Assembly: GCA_965225985.1 (NCBI GenBank)
Contig: OZ245330.1
Location: 2,111,848 to 2,175,847 of the forward strand
Direction: 5' to 3'
Source: a bacterium
GTDB lineage: Bacteria > UBA8248
DNA length: 64,000 bases
Translations under genes and position numbers: made by a program
Part shown: positions 1-51,953 of the stretch, one piece after another
Layout of the letters: every line of letters starts with the position of its first letter
Position numbering within the stretch: position 1 is the stretch's first letter
Notes under the pieces: model-generated
Told to the model about the DNA's origin: nothing
The model's input: the letters and a program-made list of their open reading frames with translations, nothing else
Database searches by the model: none

Positions 1-85
1 GGATCCAAAAGTCAAGCTGAAATAGATCCCGAGAAACCACCAGTCTCATAACTTTTCCATCTTGATTCACCGGGAGGTAATTGGT

Positions 86-1528: not shown

Positions 1529-1540
1529 GCCGGCAGGAAC

Positions 1541-3411: not shown

Positions 3412-3483
3412 ATTCCCTGACGAATAGATTCGCGCGAGATTTATTCAAATTCATTTTCACTGAATTCATCGGAGGGCCTTCTC

Positions 3484-4926: not shown

Positions 4927-4982
4927 GCGGGCGACAATAATTATTGCCGGTTAATTTGCTTATCCGTCTGGAGAAATTCGAC

Positions 4983-6425: not shown

Positions 6426-6478
6426 ACCACCGAAAGAGATTTGCTCGTCTGTCCCCATTTTATCAGGAGAAACGAGGC

Positions 6479-7921: not shown

Positions 7922-7927
7922 GATGTT

Positions 7928-8637
7928 TCACACCCGTGGAGGAACCCCGGGGCCAGGCAAAAGGTTGAAGGCCCGCATGATTCGATACTGAATGGCCGGC
8001 AAAAAGGCCTCGGCATATTCCACCTCCACCTGGCCCCCCCGCGAAGCGGTCCAGTGCCGCTCCCGCTCGATAATGCGCTCAACGTTCTCGAAGGAAATGG
8101 GTCCCGTCTCGACCGAGAGGCCCTTGTGCTCTTTTAGTGCCTCGAGCTTGGCCTCGATTGTATCGCTAATGTCCACCCCGACGCTTACCTCGGAGTTCAT
8201 CTCGGAAACCGTGTCGCAGTAATAAAGGTGCCCCACCTTGAAGGGGGGATTCTCGGTCTGGACATTTTCCAGACGGCCTTGAGGCAAGCGTTCAGGACGA
8301 CACCCGAAAGGACGCGGTGGTCGTTGTCGAAATCGGAGGGGTGCGTTGTGACGACGATATCCGGGCGCACCTCGCGGATCATTTCAACGACACGGTGGGC
8401 AAGCTCAATATCGCCTGTTAAGCGTCCCCCCTTGTAGTCGAAGTAGCGCGTCTCGGAGCCCAAGGCCGCCGCCACTCTATCTCCCTCTTCCGTGTTCCCC
8501 CCACACACCGACCCCATCACCACGCGGTGTCCCCGCTTGGCGTACTTGGCTAGTGTCCCTCCGCAAATAAATGCCATGTCAAATGGATTGGTGTGCGCTC
8601 CGACGCCCAGCATCGTCAGCCTATCCATTTTGTTCAC
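7928..8637 (-). pseudogene. PIG-L/LmbE-family deacetylase split by a 1-nt frameshift (or sequencing error)
   Basis: Two overlapping minus-strand ORFs, 8197..8637 (N-terminal part: MLGVGAHTNPFDMAFICGGTLAKYAKRGHRV, HPSDFDNDH) and 7928..8287 (C-terminal part). Together they make one LmbE-like protein of about 236 aa if one nucleotide is added within the overlap. Confidence 0.75.
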
Positions 8638-8654
8638 TTCACTGTGCTTCCGGC

Positions 8655-8687
8655 AAAAAAAAGGGCGGGACCTCTCCGGCCCCGCCC
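8655..8687 (-). terminator. Rho-independent terminator after the solute-binding protein gene
   Basis: On the minus strand: GGGCGGGGCC-GGAGA-GGTCCCGCCC (10-bp stem, one mismatch) followed by T8, located 27 nt after the stop at 8714. Confidence 0.7.
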
Positions 8688-8713
8688 CGAGGAAAAATTA
8701 ATTTTCGAACTCG

Positions 8714-10330: not shown

Positions 10331-10756
10331 AGTGATACTCTCCTTTCATGAAAGGGGACTGAAAGCCATATTATTGTCTGATATTTACCCCATTTTAATC
10401 GCGCTCCCTCTCCCCGTCAATGAACAAAAGTACTCTTGTGATTTCCCTGACTAAGTGCGCTACTTCCCCAACATTCATGGTTCGTGGGGCATTATTGAGC
10501 CGGCGGAACCAGACTCTGGCGTTATCGGGCATTCTGCTAAAAGAGTTACTTGTTGACATTAATATTTGCACATAACTAAATATTATTATTGCATTTATTG
10601 GTTGCAACAGATTACCCTATTTGCCCGGGATATCTTCACGCAAAGTACCCATGGGATAACCGCGGACACTTCCGTCGAATTCTTTCGAATTCGGATGATG
10701 TTCCTCGGTTCCTCGTCTATGATTTAGCTCCCACTTCCTTTTCGCTGAGGTCCATC

Positions 10757-12199
10757 ATGGCGGATATCATCATTAAGAACGGAATCATCATTACCATGGA
10801 CCCGGCACGAAGGGTCATCGAAAAGGGGGGCATCGCGATTGAGAAAGATAAGATCACCGCGATAGGTGCTGTGAAAAAGATCGTTAAGGAGCACCGGGCC
10901 CGGAAGGTGATCGACGCGCGCGGGATGGTGGTCATGCCCGGCCTCGTCGACACCTACGGCAACGCCGGGCACGCCATTACGAAAAACATTGGCGAGCACA
11001 TCTCCGGGTCCGCGACGCGCCGCTTGGGCGAATTCCTCAACAACACCTGCACCAGCGAAGAGTATTGGTACGCGGAAGGGCAGATCCTCGCGCTCGAGCA
11101 TCTGAAATTCGGCACAACCTGTTTCATCAACCGCTTCGTCGGGGCCAACGTGGGCTGGGACACCACCCACCCGGAAATTAACATGCGGGGAATCGCCTCT
11201 GTGGGCCTGCGACAAATCATGGCGGTGGGAGCGGGACGCCCCCCCTTCCCGGTGGCCGGAACCTCCTGGAGAAACGGAAGGCGGCGCGACAAGCGCATGA
11301 GCCTGGAGGAGTGCTTCCGGGCGGCCGAGGGGATCATCCGCCGGGGCGACGGAGCGGACGAGGGGCGGACCCGCGTCTGGGTGGGGGCCCCTCGCCTGCA
11401 CGCCCCCACCAAGCTCGACCCCGTGTTCAAGCCGGAATACCGGGAGATCTCTTTCCAGCAGGCCAAACACGTCAAACGTCTCACCGAAAAGTACGGGGTG
11501 GGTTTCCACGTGAACGCCTATGGCGAGGCCATCGAGTGGGGACACGAAAAGCTGAAAATCTTCGGGCCGAACGTAGTCATCGGCCATGGGACGGGGCTAT
11601 CGAAGAAGGGGATCGAGATCCTCCGGAGGACGGACACCAAGGTTGCGCACTGCCCCACCGCCCGGCGGCACTATTCCTACGCGGAAGGTTGCCCCGTGGT
11701 CGAGCTCATCGACGCCGGCGTCACCGTCGGCCTATCCAGCGATTACACCGCCCAGGACCGGACGGGCGACAACTTCAGGGACATGAAGGTCGCCATCATG
11801 CACCAGCGCCAGCGGTTCCACGACCCCTCCGTGCTCCCCCCCGGGAAGGTCCTCGAGATGGCCACCATCGACGGAGCCCGGGTCCTAGGACTTGATCGCA
11901 TCACGGGCTCCCTTGAGGTCGGTAAAAAAGCCGACCTTCTCCTCATCAACATGGAGCAGCCCCACCTCAAGCCCCTCTGGATGATCCCCCAGCGGGTGGC
12001 TTACCAGGTGACGGGCCACGACGTGGACACCGTTTTGGTGGACGGAAAAATTCTGATGGAGGGCCGGAAGGTGAAGAGCGTGAACGAGAAAAAGGTCCTC
12101 CGGGACGCCGAGCGGGAGGGGGCGAAAATCGTCGAGAGATGCGACCTCAAACCCTTCTTGGGGATTCCGGATAGATTCTGGGGCCACTCGCGCTACTGA
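10757..12199 (+). CDS. TRZ/ATZ-family amidohydrolase-like paralogue A5 (metal-ligand motifs degenerate)
   Basis: ORF 10589..12199. ATG 10757 gives MADIIIKNG like the paralogues. The HxH position reads LVDTYGNAG and HAHAYGG reads HVNAYGE. The conserved C-terminal block QVTGHDVDTVLVDGKILMEGRKVKSVNEKKVL is retained. Confidence 0.88.
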   Translation: MADIIIKNGIIITMDPARRVIEKGGIAIEKDKITAIGAVKKIVKEHRARKVIDARGMVVMPGLVDTYGNAGHAITKNIGEHISGSATRRLGEFLNNTCTSEEYWYAEGQILALEHLKFGTTCFINRFVGANVGWDTTHPEINMRGIASVGLRQIMAVGAGRPPFPVAGTSWRNGRRRDKRMSLEECFRAAEGIIRRGDGADEGRTRVWVGAPRLHAPTKLDPVFKPEYREISFQQAKHVKRLTEKYGVGFHVNAYGEAIEWGHEKLKIFGPNVVIGHGTGLSKKGIEILRRTDTKVAHCPTARRHYSYAEGCPVVELIDAGVTVGLSSDYTAQDRTGDNFRDMKVAIMHQRQRFHDPSVLPPGKVLEMATIDGARVLGLDRITGSLEVGKKADLLLINMEQPHLKPLWMIPQRVAYQVTGHDVDTVLVDGKILMEGRKVKSVNEKKVLRDAEREGAKIVERCDLKPFLGIPDRFWGHSRY

Positions 12200-12293
12200 T
12201 CTCTCCTCAGTGTCTTTCTCTTTTATCTGACCCCCGCTCGGTGCTTGGGATGCGCCAAAACGTCCATCCTTGCACTAATGAAAAGAGACTTTC

Positions 12294-13736
12294 ATGGCGG
12301 ACGTTCTCATCAAGAACGGCATGCTCATCACCATGGACCCGGCTCGCCGCGTCATCGAGAGGGGCGCCGTCGCGATCGAAAAAGGGAAGATCTCCGCCGT
12401 CGGCCCCACCCGCCAAGTCGAGAAAGCGCACCGCGCCCGAAAAGTCATCGACGCGCGCGGAATGGTGGTCATGCCCGGCCTCATAAACACTTTTGTCAAC
12501 TCCGGCGCTAACATGGTCAAGAACATCGCCGAGCACGCCTCCGGAGTGGCGTGGCGCCATTTGATGGACCACATTCTTCTCCGCAGCGTAACCGAGAAGT
12601 TCTACCACGTCTCCGGTGAACTTATGGCGCTCGAGCATCTCAAGTTCGGCACCACCTGTCATTTGAGCAAATTTGGATCTTCCCCTCGGGCGGACGACCC
12701 CGCCTACGCCGGGGCACACATGGAAGGGATCGCCAACATAGGCATCCGCTCGGTAACGGGAGTGGGACCATTCCGGTGGCCCTTTCCGGAAGTCTGTTCA
12801 TCGTGGAGCAACGGAAAAAAAACGGATCGAATTGTTACGATGGAGCAATCCTTCCGGGTCGTCGAGAAGCTTATTCAAAAATACAACGGCGCGCACGGAG
12901 GAAGGACAAGCGTTTGGATCGGCCTTGCGCGTTTGCTGGCGCCCGCGAAGGTCGACCCTATGTTCAATCCCCGGATTCAAAAGTATTCAAGGAAGCAGGC
13001 AAATTTCGTGAAACAGCTCATGAAAGAGTACGGCGTCGGAATGCGCGTGAACGCTTACGGCGAGGCCATCAACTGGGCCCACGAAGTGCTGGAAATTCTT
13101 GGGCCAAAGGTAGTATTGGCGCATGCCACCGCTCTTACCGAAAAATCAATCCGGTATTTGGCGGATACGGATACCAAAGTTTCACACTGCCCGACAGCTC
13201 GGCGGATGTATATGTACGACAGCACTTGCCCCGTGGTAGAGCTCATCGACGCCGGAGTCACGGTTTCTCTTGGAACGGACTATACTGGCCAAGACCGGAC
13301 GGGCGATCTGTTCAAGGACATGAAAGCCGCCTTCCTCCACCAGCGCCAGCGCTTTTGCGACCCTTCCGTGCTCCCCCCCGGGAAGGTGCTGGAGATGGCC
13401 ACCATTGACGGCGCCCGCGCCCTGGGGATGGACCACCTTGTCGGCTCGCTGGAGCCCGGCAAGCATGCCGACATCATCCTCATTGATATGGAACAGCCTC
13501 ACCTCAAACCCCTCTGGATGATCCCCCAGCGGGTGGCGTATCAAGTGACGGGACACGACGTGGACACCGTCCTGGTGGACGGAAAGATCCTAATGGAAGG
13601 CCGGAGAGTGAAGTCCGTCAACGAGAAAAGGGTCCTCCGCGAGGCCCAACAGGAGGGAGAGCGCATGGTGGAGCGAAGCGGGGCCGATCCCCTTATGGGA
13701 ATCCCGGACGGATTTTGGAAAAAATCCCGCTACTGA
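12294..13736 (+). CDS. TRZ/ATZ-family amidohydrolase-like paralogue A6 (metal-ligand motifs degenerate)
   Basis: 480-aa ORF starting MADVLIKNG. The HxH position reads LINTFVNSG and the HAH position reads RVNAYGE. LAHATAL, SLGTDYTGQD. Confidence 0.88.
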   Translation: MADVLIKNGMLITMDPARRVIERGAVAIEKGKISAVGPTRQVEKAHRARKVIDARGMVVMPGLINTFVNSGANMVKNIAEHASGVAWRHLMDHILLRSVTEKFYHVSGELMALEHLKFGTTCHLSKFGSSPRADDPAYAGAHMEGIANIGIRSVTGVGPFRWPFPEVCSSWSNGKKTDRIVTMEQSFRVVEKLIQKYNGAHGGRTSVWIGLARLLAPAKVDPMFNPRIQKYSRKQANFVKQLMKEYGVGMRVNAYGEAINWAHEVLEILGPKVVLAHATALTEKSIRYLADTDTKVSHCPTARRMYMYDSTCPVVELIDAGVTVSLGTDYTGQDRTGDLFKDMKAAFLHQRQRFCDPSVLPPGKVLEMATIDGARALGMDHLVGSLEPGKHADIILIDMEQPHLKPLWMIPQRVAYQVTGHDVDTVLVDGKILMEGRRVKSVNEKRVLREAQQEGERMVERSGADPLMGIPDGFWKKSRY

Positions 13737-16333: not shown

Positions 16334-16453
16334 AAATTTCGCCGAACAAATTCCTCTCCCCGCGATAAAAAAGGGAGGCGAATGTCAGTTCTTCCTGCAC
16401 TTCCCATTGTGAAATATAGAACACTCGGGCGCCAAAAAAACTGACCGGCCCGC

Positions 16454-16645
16454 TTGACCAATGGATTCAGCAAGAAAGCGGAGAATTTGGGGTATGCGGT
16501 GAGCCTATTTTGTATGCATTACAACTTCGCCCGGATTCATCAGGCAACGAGGGTGACGCCAGCCATAGAGGCGGGAGTGACAGACAGGGCATGGGATCTG
16601 GAAGATATTGCGAGATTACGAATGAAATTTAGTCGGATGAAATGA
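16454..16645 (+). mobile_element. Transposase C-terminal remnant (IS1/IS1595-like tail)
   Basis: 63-aa ORF ...SLFCMHYNFARIHQATRVTPAIEAGVTDRAWDLEDIA resembles the conserved C-terminal HYNF.RxH..L..TPAM.AG tail of IS transposases. No catalytic domain or inverted repeats were seen. Confidence 0.55.
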
Positions 16646-17330
16646 AAAGATTAACTTCTTTCCTGGTCCAAACGCGACGATTCATCGGGGAATTGCACTC
16701 AAAACTTAACCACCCTTTCCATTCATCCACTCGCATATCTACGTCTATTTTCAATACCAATGGGTTGGTATCGCTTACATTGACAGGATATTTCAGGGAA
16801 AATTCTCGCCCCCATCCAATGTCCTGTTCTTCTGTTACATTATACTGCTCGTGCCTACGCATTTGAAAAACTTTATCAATCACCACAATCGGGGCATCTT
16901 GATCTATTCTTCCCCCGTATCCATGTTTTTTGCACCAAAGATATTCGGGATTGGAGTGCACAAACCGTATGTTGAGATTTTTGTGAAGAGTAGAAGGAAC
17001 TTCGCTTTTTATGATCAGTTCTATTGTTAGTGATTGCTTATTAAGCCGTATCTCTCCCGATTCATTCATTTGCGTTATTTCTGAAAAACAGAAGTTTTTG
17101 TCGTCTTGAAAGAACCGCCACCAATTCCAAGCCATGTTGGCAATAAAGGCACCTACAATGGTGACGGCTAACCCGATAGGAACATCGACCGAGAGAATAT
17201 CCGCCCATTCTTTGCCAGCAGACACAAACCAGCCCCTTAGGAAGAACCAGTAAAAAGTCCAACCTATAACGGATCCTGTAATGGTAGGCGAGATCGTTCC
17301 GATAGTCTCATGAGATGGACTATTCATCAA
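16629..17330 (-). CDS. Hypothetical membrane protein (two N-terminal TM helices plus a soluble C-terminal domain)
   Basis: 233-aa ORF in the lower-GC islet. Hydrophobic segments ITGSVIGWTFYWFFL and PIGLAVTIVGAFIANMAW. No motif I recognise. Confidence 0.5.
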   Translation of the reverse strand: MMNSPSHETIGTISPTITGSVIGWTFYWFFLRGWFVSAGKEWADILSVDVPIGLAVTIVGAFIANMAWNWWRFFQDDKNFCFSEITQMNESGEIRLNKQSLTIELIIKSEVPSTLHKNLNIRFVHSNPEYLWCKKHGYGGRIDQDAPIVVIDKVFQMRRHEQYNVTEEQDIGWGREFSLKYPVNVSDTNPLVLKIDVDMRVDEWKGWLSFECNSPMNRRVWTRKEVNLFISSD

Positions 17331-17438
17331 ACTGACCCACTACCCCTTATTTCATGGAATTGTAGTTCCCCTTTGACAAGGGCGAACAAAAAACAGAAAT
17401 TTAAAACTGGGGGGGCGATTATATACTTGACGGGACCA

Positions 17439-17636
17439 TTAGCCGGGAAGATGGTTGTTAGCAGTATCCAATTCTCGTTGGGCGTCCTTTAGGTGCTCGA
17501 AGAAATTTCTCTGTAAAGAATTTCTCAGCTTCAAAAACTCGCCGTCAGTTCCAGCCATGCGAATAGCATTATCGATTTCATTTTTGGCATTTCGAATTTC
17601 CAGCCGAACGAATGAATAGTCCATTTCATCCTCCAA
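17439..17636 (-). CDS. Small hypothetical protein (65 aa, helical/charged)
   Basis: ORF only. Lies upstream of and co-directional with the membrane protein, in the low-GC region. Confidence 0.3.
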   Translation of the reverse strand: MEDEMDYSFVRLEIRNAKNEIDNAIRMAGTDGEFLKLRNSLQRNFFEHLKDAQRELDTANNHLPG

Positions 17637-17683
17637 AATGAATATGATCTGAGCGATTATATATTTGACAGGATCTAATCAAA

Positions 17684-18033
17684 TCAGAAGGCCTGGGCTA
17701 TAAGGTCGAGGATCCCCACGCCCACGCCCGCCATTACGACGGCGGCGATCAATGCGGCGCTCGCCGCGATGATGAAAAGAAAATCGCCTGTATCGTCGGG
17801 GCGATGGAGCGGGCGGCGAAAGGATTCCCGCATCCCGGGCAAGCCGCCGCTCGCGGGCTCACCTCCCGCCCGCAGTCGGGGCAGAGGGGAAGTTTCTTCT
17901 TTGCGGGCGTTCCCTCCGCTCCCGCGAACCGCGGGCCGCGGCGCCTTACGTTGAAATCCCGAATCAGCCCAAACACGACAAGTCCGCTCGTCGCGATGAT
18001 GATGAGCCAAACAAAAGTATTCCCCAAGATCAA
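17684..18033 (-). CDS. Zinc-ribbon membrane protein, possibly frameshifted
   Basis: ORF 17749..18033 has a TM helix plus CPDCG..(9)..CPGCG. The 3' end of overlapping ORF 17684..18142 encodes a GC3-rich TM helix (FLFIIAASAALIAAVVMAGVGVGILDLI) in the -1 frame directly after the zinc ribbon. Confidence 0.4.
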
Positions 18034-21518: not shown

Positions 21519-22490
21519 TCACTGCAAATCCCGGTGGGCGGGGAGAATGCCGAAACCGTTCGCCTCTACGATGGAACGGCGGAGGGCGCGCCCCACGGCA
21601 TCCTGGGCCGCAGCTCCGGCCTCATCGAGGTTGGCCTGCCGGCGCCCGCAAGAGAGGGCGAAGGCCACGTCTCCGTCCACAGTCGTATAGGAAGGACGCA
21701 CGGTGAGAATCAATCCATTCGCCGCCATTTGGGCGAGCTTCTGGGTCTGGGTTTTCGTAAGAGCCACGTCCGTCGCCACCGCGACCAAGGTTGTGTTCCC
21801 CTCCGTGCCCGAAAAACCCTCAAAGGGCCGTCCCTTTGTCCTCAAATACAACGAGGTATCGATAAAACCTTCTTCGGGTGGCTCTGCGCGTGGCCCTGCC
21901 AGGATTTCCCCCGATTCGGCATTGTGAACTCCTCCGTAGGCATTCACCACTGTGAGCGCGGCGACCACCCCTCCTCCCGAAAGGGTGATGCTTGCCGTGC
22001 CGAGCCCTCCCTTCATGGCACGCTTCATTCCCAATAGCTTTCCTACGGTCGCGCCCGTTCCGGCTCCGACGCTTCCCTGCGGGCCCTCCCTATCGGCGGC
22101 CGCTTCGCAGGCGGCGCGGCCCATCGCCTCGTCCGGCCGCACGTCGCCCCGCCCGAAGTTAAGATCGAATACAACCGCCGCCGCCGCCGTGGGAACACGG
22201 TATCTTCCCGTGGACAACCCCCTTCCCCGCTCCTCGAGGTATTGCATCACACCGCCCGCCGCCGCGAGCCCGAAGGCGCTCCCGCCCGCGAAGACGATGG
22301 CGTCGAGGTATCCGGTTAAGTGCTGCGGCCAGCCAACGAGATGCTCCGGGCGAAGGGCATCGATCCCGCGGGTCGCGGTTGCCGTTCCGCGCAGTTCACA
22401 GGCGGCGGTTGTTTCGGCGGGGCAAAGAATGACCGTGACACCGGTGAATGCGTCCAGGTCGTGAAAGTGGCCCAGGGAAAAGCCGGGCAC
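21519..22490 (-). CDS. DmpA/P1 (S58) family aminopeptidase
   Basis: 323-aa ORF. MPGFSLGHFHDLDAFTGVTVILCP... and GNTTLVAVATDVALTK (self-processing GxT/S nucleophile region) are typical of peptidase family S58. Confidence 0.85.
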   Translation of the reverse strand: MPGFSLGHFHDLDAFTGVTVILCPAETTAACELRGTATATRGIDALRPEHLVGWPQHLTGYLDAIVFAGGSAFGLAAAGGVMQYLEERGRGLSTGRYRVPTAAAAVVFDLNFGRGDVRPDEAMGRAACEAAADREGPQGSVGAGTGATVGKLLGMKRAMKGGLGTASITLSGGGVVAALTVVNAYGGVHNAESGEILAGPRAEPPEEGFIDTSLYLRTKGRPFEGFSGTEGNTTLVAVATDVALTKTQTQKLAQMAANGLILTVRPSYTTVDGDVAFALSCGRRQANLDEAGAAAQDAVGRALRRSIVEANGFGILPAHRDLQ

Positions 22491-22576
22491 ATCGGTAATG
22501 CAGCCGGAAAGACCAGTATGATTCAGATTGCAATCCTCACCACGCGGGCGGGCAGACCTCGTACCGGCTCCCTACG

Positions 22577-23233
22577 TCATACCGTCGGCAGGTTGCCGGA
22601 GGGCTTTTTGGGAAGCTCTCCCGTTTCCAGGATGTTGTCGATCACGTACCGGTATTGTTCGCTTGGCACCGCGCCCACCATGACCGCCTCCTCGTTTACG
22701 ACGACGGAGGGGATCCCTGAAATGCCGTACCGGTTCACCGCCTCGACATACTCCTCGACCACCCGGCGGCGATTCACGCCGCTCTCAAGATCGTCCCGGA
22801 ATAAATCGACGTCCAGGCCGCTCTCCCCGGCGACGCCCATCAGTACGGTCGCGTCGGAGATGTTCCGGTTTTCGGTGAAGAAAGCGGTCAGAAGATTCAA
22901 ATGAAAGCGGTCCCAAACGTCCTTCCCCTGGTCGCGGGCGGCCAAGCCCGCCTCGGCCGAGACTATCGAGCAGTCGGGGAATTTTTCATCGCTTTCCCAC
23001 ATTCGGAAATCGCCGGATTCGGGCTGATCGTTTGCATTTGTCCAGTGCGTGCGCCTGTAATCGTTGAAAACGCAGTCTGGATCGGGCTCCGGGCGGAGGA
23101 GAAACGAGCGATACTCGATATCTACCTTGTCTCCATATTCTTCCTGAATATTGTTCAGGCGCACGGCCGAATTGAAGCACCAGGGTCAAAGAAAATCGCT
23201 GAACACCTTGAAGCTGACCGGAGCGTGGCTCAC
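22577..23233 (-). CDS. DsbA/FrnE-like thiol:disulfide oxidoreductase with an in-frame TGA at the first redox Cys (candidate selenoprotein, UPWC)
   Basis: ORF 22577..23164 lacks the CxxC motif. Reading from GTG 23233 (AAGGAG 7 nt upstream) gives SHAPVSFKVFSDFL-TGA-PWCFNSAVRLNNIQEEYG in the same frame. FSDFxCPWC is the family's active-site context. Confidence 0.75.
23186..23188 (-). other. In-frame UGA codon (putative selenocysteine) in the DsbA-like gene
   Basis: Codon 16 counted from GTG 23233. The + strand tca equals minus-strand TGA, and it is immediately followed by CCC TGG TGC (P-W-C). Confidence 0.7.
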
Positions 23234-23325
23234 CGAATCACTCCTTTCGAAAACGGGACGGACGGAAGTCGCTCCCGCCCTCCCCACCAGTTAGCTCATG
23301 CAATTATCCGGCAAGCGGAATGCCC

Positions 23326-24216
23326 TCAGGCGCTTACCTCGAATCGTACCGACACCGGGGCGCCCTTTTCCACTTGAATGGCTTGGGCGGCGTTTCCGGC
23401 CGGAACGAAAATCTCCAAACGGGACCAGCTATTGAAATGGGCGCCGATCTGGCCTTCCGGGTTCTCTTGGTAATGCTCACTCATGCCCTTGATAATATTG
23501 CCACCGATTTCAATCACCGGCATGCACTCATTCTCCTCCCCCCCCGCCCGGAGTTTCCCCTCCCAAAAAGCGCCCGTTTCGATGTTCGTAATCAAGTTGC
23601 CGAAATGGTCGACATATATCACCTCGCCCCATATCGTACCCTGGGAATCTACATCGGCTTTGACGTTGGCCAGTTTAATGGGATCGAACACGATAGGTCC
23701 GAACTTTTCGGCCGCCTCCCCCGTGGAAAGATACCCGGCGACGGGGGCGAAAACGTCACGGCCGTGAAAAGTTGAACTCACTTTATCCAGAAAGAAATCC
23801 ACCGTCCGCAATTCTCGTGTCCACAGGTAGGCGGGATCTTCTAAAGCGTATGAGAATATGCCGTTGTCCGGTCCGACAAAATAATAATTTTCGGTAACGG
23901 TGAGGATCCCCCGCCTATCGCTTCCCACGCCCGGGTCGACCACCCCGACATGAATTGTCCCCTTGGGAAAGTAGTGGTAGGCCGCAGCCAGGATTACAGC
24001 CGCTTCTTGAATCTCAAAAGGCCGGATGGTGTGGGTGATATCGATGATCTGGATATTCGGATTAATGTCAATCATTACCCCTTTCATGACTGACACATAA
24101 TGGTCCGATACGCCGAAATCGGTGAGAAGGGTGATAACCCGCCGCGGATCGGTGTCCCCCTCCAGCCCTCGGCCCCCTTCATCGAAAGGATCGAGGCGCG
24201 TCTGCTCGTCGCTCAT
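23326..24216 (-). CDS. SAM hydrolase / SAM hydroxide adenosyltransferase family protein (DUF62)
   Basis: 296-aa ORF. ITLLTDFGVSDHYVSVMKGVM, IIDITHTI, HVGVVDPGVGSDRR and DHFGNLITNI are hallmark DUF62/fluorinase-family motifs. Confidence 0.85.
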   Translation of the reverse strand: MSDEQTRLDPFDEGGRGLEGDTDPRRVITLLTDFGVSDHYVSVMKGVMIDINPNIQIIDITHTIRPFEIQEAAVILAAAYHYFPKGTIHVGVVDPGVGSDRRGILTVTENYYFVGPDNGIFSYALEDPAYLWTRELRTVDFFLDKVSSTFHGRDVFAPVAGYLSTGEAAEKFGPIVFDPIKLANVKADVDSQGTIWGEVIYVDHFGNLITNIETGAFWEGKLRAGGEENECMPVIEIGGNIIKGMSEHYQENPEGQIGAHFNSWSRLEIFVPAGNAAQAIQVEKGAPVSVRFEVSA

Positions 24217-25613
24217 GGGATCTCAACGCCCCAAAGCTTCTCAAAGCGGGAGGTTCGCGGCTGTCCTTCGACCTCGCTCCGCCCGACGGGCTCGAGGCGG
24301 AGCGGCACGGACCGCCCGATCCAATCGTCCGGCCCGTTGGCAAGAACACGGATGTAATTATCGGTCAGCCCGGCAAGAAAACCGCTATCTTTCACCCGCC
24401 GCTCGAACAGGACCTCCGCCCGCACCCCGATTTGGGATGCCACGAAGGCCGCCCACTTTCGATTGCCCAGTTCGCAGAGCGCCCGCACCCGGGCGCGGAC
24501 CGTTTCGGGTGAAAGTTTTTTTCCCATGGCGGCGGCCTCTGTCCCCTCGCGCGGCGAGTAGGGAAAAACGTGCATATACGCGAGCGGAACCGCTCTCACC
24601 CATTCGAGGGTTCGCTCGAATGCCGAGTCGGTTTCGCCGGGAAATCCCGCGATGAAGTCCGCTCCAAGACAAACGCCCGAAATCCTTCGTCCAATTTCTT
24701 CAAATTTGTTGGCGCAGGGTTCGGCTCGGTAATTTCGCCCCATTCGGGAGAGAACCTCATCATCCCCGCTCTGTACCGGAATGTGGAAATGTCTGCATAC
24801 GTATGCCCCTCCTTCAGTCGCATTTTCATACGAGCGAGTCGAAACCGTTCGGATGAGTTCACGCGTCAATTCACCCGGTTCGACAGACGAAAGGCGAAGG
24901 CGCCCGAGTCCCCTTACCTCGAGCAACCGCCGGACGAGCCGGCTCAGGGTAGTTCGCTCTTCGAGATCGCGTCCATACGCGCCGAGGTGTATGCCCGTCA
25001 GGACGATTTCGATGTGCCGGTCACCCACGAGTCTTCCGGCCTGGGCTGCGCACGCTTCCGGGTCGAGCGAGCGGCTGGGTCCTCTGGCGAGAGTCGTCGC
25101 GCAGAAGCTGCAAGAGAAATCGCATCCGTCCTGGACTTTCAGCAACGCGCGGGTGCGGCCCTCAAAATGCGGCAGAGAGAAGGCCTCAAATCGAGCGCCA
25201 TCTTTCATCGGCGCGACGCGCACCTCGGGCGACCGGGCCTCCCCCCCATTCCTCCGGACAGGCAGGGACAGATGATCTGGAAGATGGATTTTCTCCGCAT
25301 TTCCCAGAAGCAGATCCGCCTCGGGAATGAGCATTCCATCAGGATTGGCCTGGGGCGCGCAGCCGGCCAAGACGACCCGGCCCCATTCCGGCGCGAGACG
25401 TCTCGCCCGCCGGGCAAGCCGCCTTGATTCGCGATCGGCTTCCGCCGTTACGGTACACGTATTGACCACGTACACATCCGCCTCTTGGCCGAATGGCACA
25501 ATCTCGTAGCCGGCCTCGGCGCACCGGTGCCGCATCGCCTCGCCCTCGGCCTGGTTCAACTTGCATCCCAGGCTTGTGATTGCAATACGCTGCCGGGGTT
25601 TCCGAGCGCTCAC
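24213..25613 (-). CDS. mtaB: Radical-SAM methylthiotransferase, MtaB/MiaB-like
   Basis: 466-aa ORF. UPF0004 N-domain (ITSLGCKLNQAE, VVNTCTVT), radical-SAM CDFSCSFC and a C-terminal TRAM-like region. Stop overlaps the DUF62 start. Confidence 0.88.
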   Translation of the reverse strand: MSARKPRQRIAITSLGCKLNQAEGEAMRHRCAEAGYEIVPFGQEADVYVVNTCTVTAEADRESRRLARRARRLAPEWGRVVLAGCAPQANPDGMLIPEADLLLGNAEKIHLPDHLSLPVRRNGGEARSPEVRVAPMKDGARFEAFSLPHFEGRTRALLKVQDGCDFSCSFCATTLARGPSRSLDPEACAAQAGRLVGDRHIEIVLTGIHLGAYGRDLEERTTLSRLVRRLLEVRGLGRLRLSSVEPGELTRELIRTVSTRSYENATEGGAYVCRHFHIPVQSGDDEVLSRMGRNYRAEPCANKFEEIGRRISGVCLGADFIAGFPGETDSAFERTLEWVRAVPLAYMHVFPYSPREGTEAAAMGKKLSPETVRARVRALCELGNRKWAAFVASQIGVRAEVLFERRVKDSGFLAGLTDNYIRVLANGPDDWIGRSVPLRLEPVGRSEVEGQPRTSRFEKLWGVEIP

Positions 25614-25945
25614 AACCGCTCTCCAAACGGAAGAAAAAAGTTTGAGATGAGCAATAGGTATTCAGTAGAAGTAATTGACATAATTACGGATTTTACGCTT
25701 GCCTTCCCCCCTTTCGCAAGAGTCTGTGAGGTTGACGGCAACATGATTTGATTGATACTTTGGCCTCTTTATGAAGGCGGAAAACGTGATCTTTTCAGCT
25801 ACTCGAATCGGTGCCCGTTGACCTTCCAGTCCCTTATTCCGGCTCGATCGACCTCATTCGATTGCGTCATTTGACGTTCCAGGGCACAATTTACCGGCTT
25901 TTTGGGGAAGGCTAAAGTTCTTTTACGAGGATACGGATACGCCTC

Positions 25946-26818
25946 ATGCATGGATTTGATTTCGTCGCCCCAACCACCGTCAGCGGTGTGCTGAAATCCA
26001 CCGTCCGGAAAAAATACAAGTTTATCGCGGGCGGAACCAACTTTCTCCCCGACCTCCGTCACCAACACGAGGGAGGGCCCGAGCTCGTCATTGACCTCAT
26101 GCGGGTTTCCGCCCTCCGCGAAATCAAGAAAAGCAAGAAGAAAATCACACTCGGCGCCCTCACCACAATGACCGATCTGTTAGAAAACAAGCCCATCACC
26201 CGTGAAGCGCCGATCCTTTCCGCCATGTCCGCCAAATTCGCGGGCCCAATAATCCGGAATCGGGCCACCGTTGCGGGAAATCTCATAGATGGAGGTCCAG
26301 CGGCCGACATCGTCCCCCCCCTCCTCGCCCTCAAGGCGGACGTTAAGCTTGTCAGCCGAAAAGGGAAACGGACCTTGCCCCTCGATAAATTCCTGACCGG
26401 CTATCGCCAGACCGCCATCCGCTCCGGCGAGCTCATCACCGAGGTATCGTTCTCCCTGCCGGGGAAAAATCATAAATGGGGCTACTATAAGCTCGCTCGC
26501 CGCAACGCCATGGCGATCACCGTTGTCGGAGTGGCTATCGTGCTCAAAATGAAGGGGAAAATATGCCAGGAGGCCGGAATCTCTCTCGGCTCGGTGACCC
26601 CCGTTCCCATCCGTTGCTATGCGGCCGAAAAAATACTCGAAGGCAATGAAGTGGACCTCTCTCTCGTCCAGCGTGCGGCGAAGGCCTGTAAAGCGGTGGC
26701 GGAACCCATCGACGACATTCGCGCCTCAGCCGAGTACCGCAAGCTGATGTGCGAGGTTTTGCCGCGGCGCATGATTTGCCAGGCGTTGGATATTCCGCTT
26801 CCCTTGGAGGCGGATTGA
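25946..26818 (+). CDS. Xanthine dehydrogenase-family FAD-binding (medium, CoxM/CutM-like) subunit
   Basis: 290-aa ORF. KFIAGGTNFLPDL, NRATVAGNL and a C-terminal DDIRASAEYRKLM are typical of the FAD_binding_5/CO_deh_flav_C subunits. Confidence 0.85.
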   Translation: MHGFDFVAPTTVSGVLKSTVRKKYKFIAGGTNFLPDLRHQHEGGPELVIDLMRVSALREIKKSKKKITLGALTTMTDLLENKPITREAPILSAMSAKFAGPIIRNRATVAGNLIDGGPAADIVPPLLALKADVKLVSRKGKRTLPLDKFLTGYRQTAIRSGELITEVSFSLPGKNHKWGYYKLARRNAMAITVVGVAIVLKMKGKICQEAGISLGSVTPVPIRCYAAEKILEGNEVDLSLVQRAAKACKAVAEPIDDIRASAEYRKLMCEVLPRRMICQALDIPLPLEAD

Positions 26819-26843
26819 AGACCTGCCGTTTTCCGGATCAAGC

Positions 26844-27491
26844 GTGGAGAAATCGGCCATGATGGCGTCCTCGACGAAGGGCAAAAAAAAGAAGGTGGCG
26901 AAAAAAACCGCCGGTCGAAAAACGGTCCGGAAAAAGGCCGTGTCATCGAAAAAGAAACCCGCAAGAAAGCGGAGCGCGAAAATGACCGCCGCCCGAAAAA
27001 CGGCCTCCTATTCACCTCCCGTAAAACGTCCGATCTCTTTTCGGGTGAATGGACAAACGGTAGAGGCCGGGGTGGCCGCGCACACGACGCTTCTTTACCT
27101 CCTCCGCGACATCGGATTCACCGAGGTCAAGAACGGGTGCGAGGCCGGCGACTGTGGCGCGTGCACAATTCTGCTCGACGGCATCGCCATGAACGCGTGC
27201 TGCGCCCTGGGAGTCCAGGCCGAAGGACGCGAGATCACCACCGTCAAAGGTATCGGGACGGTGGACAATCTTCATCCAATTCAAAGGAAATTCATCGAGC
27301 ATGGCGGTATCCAGTGCGGTTTTTGCACGCCGGGCATGATCGTGGCGGCGAAAGCGCTCCTGGACAAGAACCCCCGGCCCACCCGGGAGGAAATTAAGGC
27401 CGGAATTGCGGGCAACCTTTGCCGATGCACGGGTTATGTGAAAATCATCGACGCAATCGAAGCGGCCGCCGCCGTTACGCACGCTTCGTAA
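26844..27491 (+). CDS. [2Fe-2S]-binding (small, CoxS/CutS-like) subunit with a Lys-rich N-terminal extension
   Basis: C-terminal 155 aa: GCEAGDCGACTILLDG and CGFCTPGMIV..GNLCRCTGY (two 2Fe-2S motifs). They are preceded by about 55 aa of SSTKGKKKKVAKKTAGRKTVRKKAVSSKKKPARKRSAK. Confidence 0.85.
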   Translation: MEKSAMMASSTKGKKKKVAKKTAGRKTVRKKAVSSKKKPARKRSAKMTAARKTASYSPPVKRPISFRVNGQTVEAGVAAHTTLLYLLRDIGFTEVKNGCEAGDCGACTILLDGIAMNACCALGVQAEGREITTVKGIGTVDNLHPIQRKFIEHGGIQCGFCTPGMIVAAKALLDKNPRPTREEIKAGIAGNLCRCTGYVKIIDAIEAAAAVTHAS

Positions 27492-27502
27492 GGAAGGAAA
27501 TA

Positions 27503-28453
27503 GTGTCGTCAAACCAAGTTAAAAACGCCAAACAACGCAAATTGCCGCTACCCGATCTATCCAGCGTTGACGCCGTTCAGGAATGTTTCAGGGAAAATAA
27601 ATACATCTCGGATCGGGCAATTGCCACAACGCTTTTCCTGGCTATCAAGCTAGAAAAACCCCTCTTCCTCGAAGGCGAGGCCGGTGTCGGAAAGACGGAG
27701 ATGGCGAAAGTCCTCGCCGCCGCCCTCGACACTGAATTGATTCGTCTCCAGTGCTATGAAGGTCTCGACTCAAACTCTGCCCTTTATGAGTGGAACTATG
27801 CCAAGCAGCTCCTCCACATCAAAACCGAGGAGGGTCTCAAAGGAAACACCAAACAGGTTGAAAAGGACATATTCAGTCCCGAGTACCTGATCGAACGCCC
27901 CCTGCTCCGCGCCTTGATCCACTCGAAAGAGCGGCCCATCGTGCTGCTCATAGATGAGATTGACCGGGCGGACGAGGAATTCGAAGCGTTTCTGCTTGAA
28001 ATCCTGTCCGATTTCCAGATCACCATTCCTGAGCTCGGACCCATCATGGCCGAGCGCAAACCGCTCGTTATCTTGACGAGCAACCGGACCAGGGAAATTC
28101 ACGATGCCCTGAAACGCCGCTGCCTATACCTTTGGGTGGACTATCCCAGTTTTGAGAAAGAGTTGGAGATTGTCCTGACAAAGGTGCCCGGAATCCCGCG
28201 ACGGCTCGGCGAACAGATCTGCCGTTTCATGGGTCAGGCGCGGACGATGGACTTTTACAAGCGGCCCGGCGTTGCCGAAACCCTGGACTGGGCACAAGCT
28301 CTCATCGCCCTCCACAAGGAAGAGCTCGACCCCGACTCCGTGAAAGAAACCATCGGGTGCATCCTGAAATACCACGAGGACATCAAGCAGATCAACGAGA
28401 ATGGGCTCGACCGCCTTGTGGGGACAGCCCAGTTGTCTCCTGAAGTCGAATAG
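27503..28453 (+). CDS. MoxR-like AAA+ ATPase (CoxD-like)
   Basis: In-frame part of ORF 27419..28453. GTG 27503 follows AAGGAAGG. Walker A GEAGVGKTEMAK, Walker B VLLIDEIDRADEEF, sensor LTSNRTRE. Confidence 0.88.
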   Translation: MSSNQVKNAKQRKLPLPDLSSVDAVQECFRENKYISDRAIATTLFLAIKLEKPLFLEGEAGVGKTEMAKVLAAALDTELIRLQCYEGLDSNSALYEWNYAKQLLHIKTEEGLKGNTKQVEKDIFSPEYLIERPLLRALIHSKERPIVLLIDEIDRADEEFEAFLLEILSDFQITIPELGPIMAERKPLVILTSNRTREIHDALKRRCLYLWVDYPSFEKELEIVLTKVPGIPRRLGEQICRFMGQARTMDFYKRPGVAETLDWAQALIALHKEELDPDSVKETIGCILKYHEDIKQINENGLDRLVGTAQLSPEVE

Positions 28454-28477
28454 CCGCATTCGCTCTCAGGGTTTCCC

Positions 28478-29734
28478 ATGAAAATCCGCCCTGTTGTTTC
28501 AGGCACCCTCCCCGGTCGGCGCATCCGCTCTCCCGGCAGCGGCATTCAAGGGGAGGTCACCGCCTTTTGCCGAATACTTCGGAAAACCGGCCTGAAGGCG
28601 ACCTCCGGCAGAATCATCGACCTCTTCCACAGTTTTGAGCACCTGGACATCACGGAACTGCAAAATGTCTATGTGGCGGCGAAATCCAACCTGGTCTCCA
28701 GCCAGGAGGAAAGCGTCATATTCGACGCGATCTTTCGCCGTTTTTGGTTTGACGAGCGCGGGAACGTCTCGGCCGGGGAGGAATCCCTTGAGCTCGACGC
28801 GGAGCTTGAGAACGAATTGGCCGAAGGCGCCGGCGAGGGGCCGGGCGACCCGCAGGACGACAAGGAGCCTGAGACTGATGAAACCAAAGCGGGCCCAAGC
28901 CTTTCCAGCGAAGAGGCGGAAGAGGGAGCCGAACCGGGCGAGGGGGGGGAGGGCGAAGAGGGCGTCCCCGCCTACAGCCCCGCCGAGGTATTGTCACAAA
29001 AGGATTTCTCCTCCATTCAGGCGGACCAGATCCACCAAATACGCCGGCTGATCGCCAAGCTGGTCCCGAAACTCGCCACCCGGCTTAGCCGCCGGAAAAA
29101 AGCCGCGGCGAGCGCGCGGGAGATCGACCTCCGGAGGAGCGTGAAGCGGAGCATCCGGACCGGCGGCGAGGTGATCAAACTCTTCCGCAGAAAACGCCGT
29201 ATTCAGAAAACCCAAATTATCCTTCTTTGCGACGTCTCCGGTTCGATGGACAGTTACAGCCAATTTCTCATTCGGTTCCTCTACAGTCTTCAAAACGAAA
29301 TCAAATCGCTCCGGACCTTCGTATTCAGCACCCGTCTCACCGACGCGACCCCCTACCTTCGGCACAAAGACGTAAACGTGGCCTTGTCGCGCCTCTCCCA
29401 CGAGGTTCATGACTGGAGCGGCGGGACCCAAATCGGAAATTGTCTCCGCACTTTCAACTACGACTACGGCAGGCAGATCCTCAACAGCCGGACCATCGTA
29501 CTCATCATCTCGGACGGATGGGACCGGGGGGACACCGACCTCCTCGCTCTCGAATTGGATCGTCTGAAGAAAAGGTGCCGTCACCTGATTTGGCTGAACC
29601 CCCTGCTGGGCAGCCCCGGATACCGGCCAATCGACCGCGGGATGCGGACGGCCCTTCCGTATTGCGACGATTTTTTGCCCGCCCACAACTTGGAGAGCTT
29701 GGTCAACATGACTCACAAGATTTCAAAGCTCTAA
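28478..29734 (+). CDS. VWA domain protein (CoxE-like)
   Basis: 418-aa ORF with an acidic central linker and a C-terminal VWA domain with MIDAS LLCDVSGSM and ISDGWD. Immediately follows the MoxR ATPase. Confidence 0.85.
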   Translation: MKIRPVVSGTLPGRRIRSPGSGIQGEVTAFCRILRKTGLKATSGRIIDLFHSFEHLDITELQNVYVAAKSNLVSSQEESVIFDAIFRRFWFDERGNVSAGEESLELDAELENELAEGAGEGPGDPQDDKEPETDETKAGPSLSSEEAEEGAEPGEGGEGEEGVPAYSPAEVLSQKDFSSIQADQIHQIRRLIAKLVPKLATRLSRRKKAAASAREIDLRRSVKRSIRTGGEVIKLFRRKRRIQKTQIILLCDVSGSMDSYSQFLIRFLYSLQNEIKSLRTFVFSTRLTDATPYLRHKDVNVALSRLSHEVHDWSGGTQIGNCLRTFNYDYGRQILNSRTIVLIISDGWDRGDTDLLALELDRLKKRCRHLIWLNPLLGSPGYRPIDRGMRTALPYCDDFLPAHNLESLVNMTHKISKL

Positions 29735-29828
29735 TCTGTTTTTCCCGAAAGCGGCGCATCGGTTAAAATTCACTGCAGACATACCCGTTACATTTCCGAC
29801 GCTTTATTGCACGCATTGGACGCCCGGG

Positions 29829-30497
29829 ATGGCAAAGCTATTAATCTATACGGCCGATGACGGATTCGCCGACGCCCTCATCCGCTCCCTCCGCCGCGAG
29901 GGACATTTTTGCAAAGTGGTCGAGGACGAAGAGACGGCCCTGCGGGAAATACGCGGACAAGGCTATTCGCTCATTCTTCTGGACGACGCCCCCGCCCTTC
30001 CTTCCGTGAATGACCTTCGGAACTGGAGCGCGATGCCCATCCTCCTTCTCGTGGAGCCCGCCCGTTTGCCGAGCCAGCCCACGCCCATCGAAGCCGACGA
30101 CGCGGTTGTGAAGCCGGTTCGGGAGGAAGAGCTCATTTTCCGCGTTCAAAACTTGTGTGCCCGCTCCCGCGATTCGTCGTACAAAACGGGGAATTCCCCG
30201 CGCGAGGTCGAGGGCCTGGCCCTCGACGAGGACCGCTACGAGTTTCGCCTTCACGGCGTTCCCATCAGCCTGACTTTTCGGGAATTTGAGCTTCTCAAAC
30301 TCTTGATGAAAAACCCGGGCCATGTTTTCGACCGGGAGCGGCTTCTCGATCTCGTTTGGGGCGCCGACTACATCGGCGGCGCGCGAACCGTGGACGTTCA
30401 CATCCGCAGAATTCGGTCGAAGATCGAGGCCGGTGGCCGGCCCTTCATCTCCACCATCCGGGGGGTAGGCTACAAGTTCAACGAAGGAACGAGATAA
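29829..30497 (+). CDS. OmpR/PhoB-type response regulator (receiver plus winged-helix)
   Basis: 222-aa ORF. Receiver with LILLDD. C-terminal LTFREFELLKLLMKNPGHVF.R..LLD.VWG....GGARTVDVHIRRIRSKIE..IST.RGVGYKF. Confidence 0.85.
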   Translation: MAKLLIYTADDGFADALIRSLRREGHFCKVVEDEETALREIRGQGYSLILLDDAPALPSVNDLRNWSAMPILLLVEPARLPSQPTPIEADDAVVKPVREEELIFRVQNLCARSRDSSYKTGNSPREVEGLALDEDRYEFRLHGVPISLTFREFELLKLLMKNPGHVFDRERLLDLVWGADYIGGARTVDVHIRRIRSKIEAGGRPFISTIRGVGYKFNEGTR

Positions 30498-30766
30498 GGA
30501 AAATTCCTCTCGAAACGCCGGCGCCCCCCTTCCCCATCTCGTTTCTCCCGTGGATTTAACCCCGGCGAAATCCCGCCGAAACGTTTCTGAAACAAGGCTT
30601 GATTAGCATGAGGACAATTGTGAGTCCCCCTCGCGGCGGAGCCGGTGCCGCTGGTTCGCCAAAAATCATCCGAAGGGGGGAGGATGCGGGAAAGCGGCCG
30701 TGTCGCCATCAAAAAACTCCGGCGGCGGGATGAAGCCGGAATCTCTTTCCCGCCCTCGCCGGGCAA

Positions 30767-32137
30767 ATGTATCGGGAATCGGAGAAGCGATTGACCCCGT
30801 CATCTGAGGCAAGGGACAAGGAATTTGTCCTCAACCAGGCGCGCGATCTGGATGTTCGCTTCATCCGGATGTGGTTCACAGACATTCTCGGCTTTCTCAA
30901 AAGTTTTGCCATCACCACCGAGGATCTCGAAACCGCCCTTTTTGAAGGACACCTATTCGACGGTTCCGCTATCGAGGGCTTTGCCCGGATCGAAGAAAGC
31001 GACATGTTCGCCCTGCCCGACCCAGCCACGTTTTGCGTCCTCCCCTGGCGGCCCAAAGACGGCGGAGTGGTCGCCCGCATGTTCTGCAACATCAACCGTC
31101 CGGACGGCTCGCCTTATCCGGCGGACCCGCGTTACGTCCTCCGGCGCGCCCTCGAAAAGGCCGCCGCCAAAGGTTTCACCTTTTACGTTGGCGCCGAATT
31201 CGAACATTACTATTTCAGATCGTCAGAGCCGCCCTTGGAAAAGCTCGACCGGGGAGGATACTTCGACCTCACCCCGCTCGACGTCGCCAGCGATCTCCGG
31301 CGGGACACGGTTCTCACTCTCGAAGGCATGGGAATCGGCGTGGAGTACAGCCACCACGAGGTAGGCCCCAGCCAGCACGAAATCGACCTGCGCTACGATG
31401 ACGCCTTGGCCATGGCGGACAACGCCATGACATACCGTCTCGTGGTAAAGGAAGTGGCGATGCGCCACGGCGTCTTTGCGACTTTCATGCCCAAGCCCCT
31501 CGCCGACAGCAACGGAAACGGAATGCACCTCAACCTTTCCCTATTCGAAGGCGAGCGGAACATTTTCCACGATACCTCGAAGGCGGACGGCCTTTCGGAC
31601 GAGTGCCTCGTGTTTATCGCGGGTCTGCTTCGGCATGCGCCCGAGTGCGCCATCGTTTTGAATCAATGGACAAACAGCTACAAGCGCCTGGTTCCCGGAT
31701 TCGAAGCCCCCATGTACATCTCCTGGGCCCACAAAAACCGGAGCGATCTTATCCGCGTTCCGACCCCCCGAAAGGGACGCGACTCCGACACCCGGATCGA
31801 GCTTCGCTCGCCGGACCCGGCGTGCAACCCCTATCTCACCTTCGCCTGCTGTCTTGCGGCGGGAATGGAGGGAATCGAGAAAGGATACCCCCCCGTGGCG
31901 CCCGTCGAGGAAAATGTCTACGAGCTCAGCCCGGAGGAAAGGGAGCGAAGAGAAATCAGGACGCTGCCGGGCGATTTGGGCGAAGCAATCAAATTTGCTG
32001 AAAACAACGAATTGCTGAAAACGGTGCTGGGCGAATACATCCTGGATAAGTTGATTGAAAACAAAAAGCTCGAATGGGAGCGCTACCGGGTCCACGTCTC
32101 CGATTTCGAGCTCAATGCCTATCTCCCCATCCTATAA
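30767..32137 (+). CDS. glnA: Glutamine synthetase, type I (alpha-like)
   Basis: 456-aa ORF collinear with Bacillus-type GlnA: FTDILGFLKSF, FDGSAIEGFARIEESDM, GGYFDL, SHHEVGPSQHEID, MPKPL...NGNGMHLNLSL, NSYKRLVPGFEAP, RSPDPACNPYL. Confidence 0.92.
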   Translation: MYRESEKRLTPSSEARDKEFVLNQARDLDVRFIRMWFTDILGFLKSFAITTEDLETALFEGHLFDGSAIEGFARIEESDMFALPDPATFCVLPWRPKDGGVVARMFCNINRPDGSPYPADPRYVLRRALEKAAAKGFTFYVGAEFEHYYFRSSEPPLEKLDRGGYFDLTPLDVASDLRRDTVLTLEGMGIGVEYSHHEVGPSQHEIDLRYDDALAMADNAMTYRLVVKEVAMRHGVFATFMPKPLADSNGNGMHLNLSLFEGERNIFHDTSKADGLSDECLVFIAGLLRHAPECAIVLNQWTNSYKRLVPGFEAPMYISWAHKNRSDLIRVPTPRKGRDSDTRIELRSPDPACNPYLTFACCLAAGMEGIEKGYPPVAPVEENVYELSPEERERREIRTLPGDLGEAIKFAENNELLKTVLGEYILDKLIENKKLEWERYRVHVSDFELNAYLPIL

Positions 32138-51900: not shown

Positions 51901-51953
51901 ACAAGAATCTTCTTGAAACGAAGCTGAACGAAGCGTTGCGAAAAATTTCCTAG
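48938..51953 (+). pseudogene. cyaA: Class I (CyaA-type) adenylate cyclase interrupted by a +1 frameshift at an A7 run
   Basis: ORFs 48938..50470 and 50541..51953 are collinear with E. coli CyaA (MGSLATIAQTKKSDFDIWVC, FFITD, LLKEEFYRT, FGAALWQLNKALGSPFKSAMK, RKCFYLK, WGWGNDE | DITVLGRKLF, LTFAYVP, LVWLVINGAW). The frames swap at A7, 50364-50370. Confidence 0.85.

Follow-up and report, generated by a model that had tools for sequence, protein, structure and literature searches.

The gene on the minus strand at positions 22577..23233 of the stretch of DNA analyzed here (64 kb; hereafter the window) very probably encodes a 218-residue cytoplasmic DsbA/FrnE-like thiol-disulfide oxidoreductase, in which an in-frame UGA would specify selenocysteine (Sec) to give the active site U-P-W-C. 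A first-pass annotation had proposed a selenoprotein of this UxxC type on the basis of the sequence alone. The proposal is supported by a TGA that occupies the position of a Cys codon, by coding evolution on both sides of this TGA, and by a covarying RNA constraint immediately downstream. The main features of the gene are the following.

22577..23233, minus strand: predicted full-length selenoprotein coding sequence, 218 codons plus a terminal TGA at 22577-22579, with a GTG start and the putative Sec codon as codon 16
23231..23233, minus strand: GTG start codon, aligned with the ATG that 31 of 37 close homologues carry 15 codons before the TGA
23241..23246, minus strand: Shine-Dalgarno-like AAGGAG, 7 nt before the GTG start
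23186..23188, minus strand: in-frame TGA, the presumed Sec codon, residue 16 and position 1 of UxxC
23177..23179, minus strand: TGC for the second (resolving) Cys of U-P-W-C, an invariant Cys encoded by TGC or TGT

The frame extends from GTG 23233-23231 to TGA 22579-22577 and contains 218 sense codons with a single internal stop, the TGA at 23188-23186. These coordinates, and the presence of AAGGAG at 23246-23241, agree with the first-pass description. The full translation is VSHAPVSFKVFSDFL before the internal stop and PWCFNSAVRLNNIQEEYGDKVDIEYRSF after it, which places the stop in the active-site context FSDFL-U-PWC; the portion following the stop begins with PWCFNSAVRLNN, and the protein ends ...LPTV. 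If Cys is substituted for the stop, the product contains a thioredoxin-like DSBA domain (PF01323; E=2.4e-20). The match is continuous across the TGA, since it runs from residue 9 to 198 and from profile position 3 to 190 of 191. In the mechanical list of open reading frames, only 22577-23164 is given for this gene. This 195-aa frame lacks CxxC, as had been pointed out, because its GTG start comes after the CxxC position.

The same interruption is present in the close relatives of the gene. A search of a library of 5.8 billion proteins returned 49 relatives, 46 of them close (49-91% identity). All 46 are only 152-197 aa in length (most are 190-196), spanning ~70-89% of the query, and all 21 that were aligned begin at or just past MRLKK, directly after the CxxC position. 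Because every close homologue is short and the aligned ones start just past the CxxC position, we conclude that all carry the interruption. Full-length proteins with CPWC are represented among the 49 only by the distant relatives P0047 and P0049. When 50%-identity representatives were searched, many more relatives starting with [MVL]R[LI] were recovered, along with 22 full-length CPWC forms.

The corresponding DNA was read upstream in frame at 44 homologous genome loci (L001-L044) from MAGs labelled Nitrospinaceae, Nitrospinota, Tectomicrobia, Deltaproteobacteria, Binatia, and Myxococcales. A TGA is found at codon 16 in 43 of these 44 loci, within the sequence ...PVRFTVYSDFL-stop-PWCFNSAVRL. 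The remaining locus, L041 (Myxococcales), has TGT for Cys at this position. Six divergent truncated metagenomic homologues (~30-40% identity) were also fetched, and in all six a TGA lies eight codons upstream of the start that had been called, in the context SDY(L/I/V/Q)-U-PWC. In the 43 loci and the 6 further homologues the stop is always TGA, never TAA or TAG. Recurrence of this one codon at 43/44 loci and in 6/6 divergent homologues, always as TGA, is far beyond what is expected by chance. In Cys-containing homologues, the first Cys of CxxC aligns with the UGA. This Sec/Cys pairing is seen with L041, P0047, P0049, P0051, P0058, and FrnE (5cnw), in line with the earlier claim that the stop falls on the N-terminal redox Cys.

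The 15 codons that precede the TGA behave as coding sequence. The peptide M..PVRFTVYSDFL is kept and synonymous sites vary, with Leu15 encoded by TTG, CTC, CTG, or CTT, Val10 by four codons, and Thr9 by three. Because the amino acids are kept while the codons vary synonymously, this stretch must be translated in frame with the downstream part. In many loci (e.g., L004, L005, L013, and L019) in-frame stops occur a few codons above the start. The UGA is thus retained among orthologues (49 TGA-bearing genes) with coding conservation on both flanks, as would be expected of a DsbA-like selenoprotein.

These data bear on two simpler accounts of the internal stop. One base change can turn TGC or TGT into TGA, and L041 does carry TGT, as would be expected if the TGA had arisen from a Cys codon by nonsense mutation in a pseudogene, or through a mistake in sequencing or assembly. 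However, the same TGA exists in 49 independently assembled homologues that share ~30-91% protein identity, and the frames are intact on both sides in these genes. Because the TGA is shared and the upstream stretch is translated in frame, nonsense mutation, pseudogene formation, and sequencing error are ruled out for practical purposes, and we give them a negligible probability. The first-pass annotation had already judged a random nonsense mutation to be the less likely explanation, and the 43/44 loci and 6/6 divergent homologues bear out this judgment. An alternative genetic code in which UGA specifies Trp or Gly was rejected as well. TGA ends the selenoprotein gene itself and several Pfam-complete genes of the window, and since TGA is otherwise an ordinary stop in the window, a reassigned code is excluded.

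Another possibility is that function resides in the annotated 195-aa protein, which starts at GTG 23164 and has no CxxC, and that the upstream 15 codons form a leader or are untranslated. Gene callers choose this start in every database entry, and a GTG is available there. However, the GTG at 23162-23164 is the codon for the conserved Val24, and it resides inside the apical loop of the RNA hairpin described below. Moreover, the 15 upstream codons are under protein-level selection, and together with PWCFNSA they match, without a break, the first strand and the active site in the Cys forms, in FrnE, and in the Pfam profile. The Shine-Dalgarno sequence precedes GTG 23233 and not GTG 23164, which therefore counts against a start at 23164. 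For these reasons, the shorter protein is very unlikely to be the functional product, and the reading that begins at GTG 23233 and continues through the UGA is preferred.

Selenoprotein mRNAs in bacteria are expected under this reading to carry a SECIS element just past the UGA, and three features of the downstream RNA are relevant. Hairpin positions are numbered with the U of UGA as 1.

23154..23171, minus strand: candidate SECIS apical hairpin, +18 to +35, UUCGGC[CGUGC]GCC(U)GAA, with the loop at 23161-23165, the invariant G25-U26 at 23164-23163, and a bulged U32 at 23157
23156..23170, minus strand: codons 22-26 (TCG GCC GTG CGC CTG), +19 to +33, with almost no synonymous variation
23143..23185, minus strand: span of the putative extended SECIS stem, in which +4-15 pairs with +36-46; degraded in the window

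Codons 22-26 are subject to the strongest nucleotide-level constraint in the gene. The mean pairwise third-position identity among 37 unique coding sequences is 0.58. Nevertheless, synonymous variation is entirely lacking at codons 22, 23, 24, and 26, and at no others among the 82 conserved codons that are at least four-fold degenerate. A score as low as that of codons 22-26 was reached by none of 200000 random five-codon sets. Five Cys-form homologues that have the same A/S-V-R-L/I residues vary the codons used for them (GCC/GCG/TCG/GCA/AGC; GTA/GTG/GTC; AGA/CGG/CGC). Because varied codons are used at this site by the Cys forms, the constraint is specific to the TGA-bearing genes.

The constrained codons fall within the hairpin spanning +18 to +35, and comparative data indicate that this hairpin is conserved and that its pairs covary. 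Among about 40 distinct sequences, 85-87% of cells are paired, compared with 22-62% when the 3' arm is slid. Compensatory changes are evident in four of the six pairs (19-34, UA to GC; 18-35, UA to CG; 22-30, GC to UA or UG; 20-33, CG to GC), and the covariation score was reached in none of 500 shuffles. A hairpin centered on the invariant G25-U26 is the minimum free energy fold of the divergent members L038, L039, L043, L044, and L047, where its energy is -8 to -14.5 kcal/mol and its register is sometimes shifted. The window preserves this apical hairpin completely, including the GU loop, with no difference from relatives, and the energy of the hairpin alone is -4.1 kcal/mol.

Support is also found for the extended stem across the family, where 80.6% of cells are paired vs 37-54% in slid controls. 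It is the minimum free energy structure in L002, L004, L020, L023, and L030 (-8.9 to -19.5 kcal/mol). In the window, 13 of its 17 pairs can form, at a model energy of -1.9 kcal/mol; most of the lower stem seen in relatives has disappeared both here and in the closest relative, L001.

The published bSECIS model describes a loop of 3-9 nt, a stem of 4-16 bp, a spacing of 16-37 nt, and a minimum free energy of -7.5 kcal/mol or lower, with a G in the first two loop positions that is often followed by G or U (PMC13188914). The window hairpin fits this model in its 5-nt loop CGUGC, with G at position 2 and then U, in its 6-bp bulged stem, and in its spacing of 20 nt. The energy threshold of -7.5 kcal/mol is satisfied by many relatives, whereas the window hairpin lies above it (-4.1 alone, -1.9 extended). 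The hairpin at +18 to +35 is therefore best described as a candidate bacterial SECIS whose position and loop match the model. The 76-nt region as a whole is no more stable when folded than shuffled versions of it (z=-0.08), and for this reason thermodynamics alone is uninformative. No matching Rfam family was detected, either in the whole window at the gathering threshold or in 23050-23300 under permissive settings; the searches returned just a tRNA-Gly and noise.

The conserved element is a third hairpin, distinct from the two that the first-pass annotation had named as candidates. Both of those do exist in the window sequence. The GGUGC/GCGCC hairpin, formed by +8-12 and +27-31, is 93% paired across the family, but it shows no covariation and breaks in divergent members that have CGG at +28-30. 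The loop of 14 nt and the spacing of 9 nt are also outside the bSECIS model, and the hairpin competes with the +18-35 fold in the main group of sequences. The CCUGAA-CAAUA-UUCAGG hairpin (+30-46) is confined to the window, apart from a weakened 4-bp version in L001. Neither was retained as a SECIS.

A close point of comparison is the SECIS of E. coli fdhF, in which a 17-nt upper stem-loop located 11 nt from the UGA presents G23-U24 in its loop and includes a bulged U. The upper hairpin is essential and the lower stem contributes ~25% of activity (PMC8659212). In both RNAs the UGA is followed directly by a hairpin whose loop contains G-U (+23/+24 in fdhF, +25/+26 in the window). The essential upper stem-loop of fdhF also has a parallel in the window family, where the upper stem-loop is conserved and the lower stem is variable. 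Each upper stem has a single bulged U, although it is located in the 5' arm in fdhF (U17) and in the 3' arm in the window (U32). The upper hairpin of the window starts 14 nt past the UGA rather than 11 nt, and the two elements have no sequence similarity.

Genes for Sec incorporation were sought in the available DNA. A Pfam scan of ~50 open reading frames of the 64-kb window revealed no SelA, SelB, or SelD, and selA, selB, selD, and tRNA-Sec were found neither in the window nor in the 44 genome loci, where ARAGORN was used to search for the tRNA. Read-through of each TGA flanking the called frames of the window yielded no other convincing selenoprotein gene. BSepDB, which analyzes only genomes that have at least two of SelA, SelB, and SelD, lists the MAG FO_M_Nitrospinota_01 with 54 selenoprotein genes (PMC13326102). 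Locus L027 comes from this MAG and carries the TGA-containing gene in a matching gene order, which lends indirect support to the presence of Sec machinery.

The lack of any Sec machinery gene or tRNA-Sec within the window would be compatible with UGA codon 16 being read through as Trp or Cys by a near-cognate or suppressor tRNA, or with a genome that has lost the Sec machinery, such that little or no full-length protein is made. The weakness of the SECIS-like hairpin in the window and the degradation of its lower stem point in the same direction. However, the apical hairpin and GU loop remain intact and identical to those of relatives, and the nucleotide constraint is specific to TGA-bearing forms, as a SECIS predicts. 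One relative that carries the gene is on record as using Sec heavily, and the E. coli lower stem provides only a minor share of activity. We consider read-through without Sec to be quite unlikely, and Sec insertion remains the favored explanation for the conserved UGA.

If this explanation is correct, then the hairpin at +18-35, with G25-U26 in its apical loop, would act as a bacterial SECIS and recruit SelB-GTP-Sec-tRNASec to the ribosome paused at UGA 23188-23186. Sec would be inserted at this codon instead of termination, and the terminal TGA at 22579-22577 would still be read as a stop. The inserted Sec would replace the attacking N-terminal Cys of CxxC and serve as the nucleophilic active-site residue. 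The protein could then cycle between a selenolate/thiol form and a selenenylsulfide formed with Cys19. SelB binding, selenium incorporation, and action on a cellular substrate are what we infer from these comparisons.

The gene joins a selenoprotein family that has been known since 2005, when a 'DsbA-like protein' family (COG2761, UxxC) was defined in a study of the Sargasso Sea with nine sequences and a SECIS figure (PMC1088965). DsbA-like selenoproteins were also found in the genomes of Anaeromyxobacter, Desulfovibrio, and Desulfotomaculum (PMC1794560), and a 2026 review has the entry 'DsbA-like protein form 1, PF01323, UxxC' (PMC13188914). With UxxC DsbA-like selenoproteins on record since 2005, the general picture of selenoproteins does not change. 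The window gene resembles form 1 in its PF01323 domain, in Sec at the first position of the CxxC equivalent, in having Cys homologues, and in a small-loop hairpin with G just past the UGA, a likeness drawn from the published descriptions of the family, whose representatives include NIP15863.1 and AACY01178397. Form 1 has been reported from Deltaproteobacteria and marine metagenomes. The window clade, which comes from MAGs labelled Nitrospinota or Tectomicrobia, may belong to that subfamily or to a sister group of it.

Among proteins of solved structure, the best match is FrnE, a cytoplasmic disulfide isomerase of Deinococcus radiodurans (PDB 5cnw and 5cp1; E=3.9e-10). The FrnE motif IWSDIACPWCY aligns with VFSDFLUPWCF of the window protein, such that U falls on the first Cys. 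The two proteins share the DsbA fold, a CPWC-type motif, and the absence of a signal peptide. They also have in common a conserved G-I-P motif (ITGVP / ISGIP), which we take to be the cis-Pro loop of the family. FrnE differs in that it has Cys rather than Sec and is 260 aa in length, 42 residues longer than the 218-aa window protein, and overall similarity is low. In D. radiodurans, the C-terminal tail of FrnE includes an extra Cys pair. Unlike this tail, the C terminus of the window protein (...ETGELPKKPSGNLPTV) contains no Cys.

There are only 15 residues ahead of the active site, and in-frame stops are located just upstream in many homologues. Because of this arrangement, a signal peptide is absent, and the protein is therefore predicted to be cytoplasmic like FrnE, and not periplasmic like classical DsbA. 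The periplasmic DsbA of E. coli (CPHC) belongs to the same Pfam family and likewise combines a thioredoxin fold, interrupted by a helical insertion, with an active site of the CxxC type. In contrast to DsbA, which has a signal peptide and CPHC, the window protein has no room for a signal peptide and carries UPWC. It probably works as a reductase or isomerase in the cytoplasm, and not as an oxidant in the periplasm.

The wider family is structurally diverse. Distant relatives, including P0053, P0054, P0057, P0061, and others, include proteins of 600-1160 aa. P0053 (974 aa), for example, has a hydrophobic signal-like N terminus as judged by eye and five tandem DsbA-like domains, each with EFSDFECxxC. 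Such multi-domain proteins have no bearing on the Sec question. In some branches of the family the second redox residue or both have been lost, as in the full-length relatives P0077, P0137, and P0183, whose active sites are degenerate (CPWR, DPWS, and CPWS).

The genes that surround the selenoprotein gene are also conserved, and the following neighbors were identified by Pfam matches.

24213-25613, minus strand: MiaB-like radical-SAM enzyme, adjoining in 37 loci; forms a block with SAM_HAT at 23326..25613
23326-24216, minus strand: SAM hydroxide adenosyltransferase family protein, the upstream neighbor in 37 loci
21519..22490, minus strand: peptidase S58 (DmpA-like), the downstream neighbor in 36 loci

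The co-directional order MiaB-like, SAM_HAT, DsbA(Sec), and S58 peptidase is kept in ~36 MAG loci (L001-L037), and no convincing terminator was found between these four genes. A divergent block of CoxM, CoxS, AAA (CoxD-like), and CoxE-OmpR-GlnA is located upstream, and the conserved region as a whole corresponds to 21519-32137 of the window. No CoxL-like large subunit was noticed directly beside CoxM/CoxS in the window.

A more ambitious interpretation is that the clade constitutes a distinct and almost obligately Sec-using FrnE-like subfamily, with the conserved four-gene arrangement and, in the window lineage, a SECIS that is minimal at about -4 kcal/mol. A hairpin of this energy fails the standard bSECIS energy filter. 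We regard this interpretation as doubtful. If true, it would suggest a role for the protein as a dedicated redox partner of the neighboring enzymes, as well as a SelB that tolerates a very weak SECIS. Such a SelB might help to account for the great size of the selenoproteomes that this lineage is reported to have.

The analysis also accounts for the way in which these genes are annotated. At least 55 cluster representatives in public protein libraries (clusters P0001-P0175) start at [MVL]R[LI] because gene callers take the Val24 GTG in the SECIS loop as the start. NCBIfam offers no model that captures the gene and gave only sub-threshold matches, including one to an unrelated selenolipoprotein model. 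The truncated annotation is thus systematic, with callers beginning at the GUG of the SECIS loop and the family absent from the NCBIfam models. Correction is warranted both for the window call and for dozens of public protein clusters, from which the half of the protein that bears the active site is missing. Beyond this correction, the covarying SECIS of the clade, the cause of the truncated annotation, and the conserved neighborhood are a modest addition to the known family. For a lineage that is reported to rank with the bacteria richest in selenoproteins, they supply a well-supported selenoprotein and an alignment that documents a covarying SECIS.

Several other regions of the window merit brief description. 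Positions 62-13736 include five paralogous Amidohydro_1 genes (62-1528, 3484-4926, 6479-7921, 10589-12199, and 12294-13736). The C termini encoded at 62-1528, 3484-4926, and 10589-12199 share PF(M/L)G(M/I)PDRFWG(N/H)SRY. Between the five genes lie Opp-type ABC permeases (1541-3411) and, on the minus strand, a family-5 solute-binding protein (8714-10330). A low-GC island at 16450-17700 (0.39-0.46 vs ~0.66 in its flanks) is probably the remnant of a horizontally acquired insertion. It contains a frame (16454-16645) that by eye is a candidate for a C-terminal transposase fragment and another (16629-17330) that encodes a predicted membrane protein of 233 aa with no Pfam match.

A class-I adenylate cyclase at 48938-51953 appears to be split into two adjacent frames (48938-50470 and 50541-51953) in different reading frames, and this may reflect a frameshift, a pseudogene, or a genuinely split gene. 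A heme biosynthesis cluster occupies 40203-45110 on the minus strand, with HemA at 43749-45110, HemC at 42812-43795, a CobA/HemD fusion at 41230-42819, and HemB at 40203-41369. A chemotaxis cluster at 53135-63474 encodes CheR, CheB, response regulators, CHASE3-MCP, CheW-REC, and a CheA-like protein.
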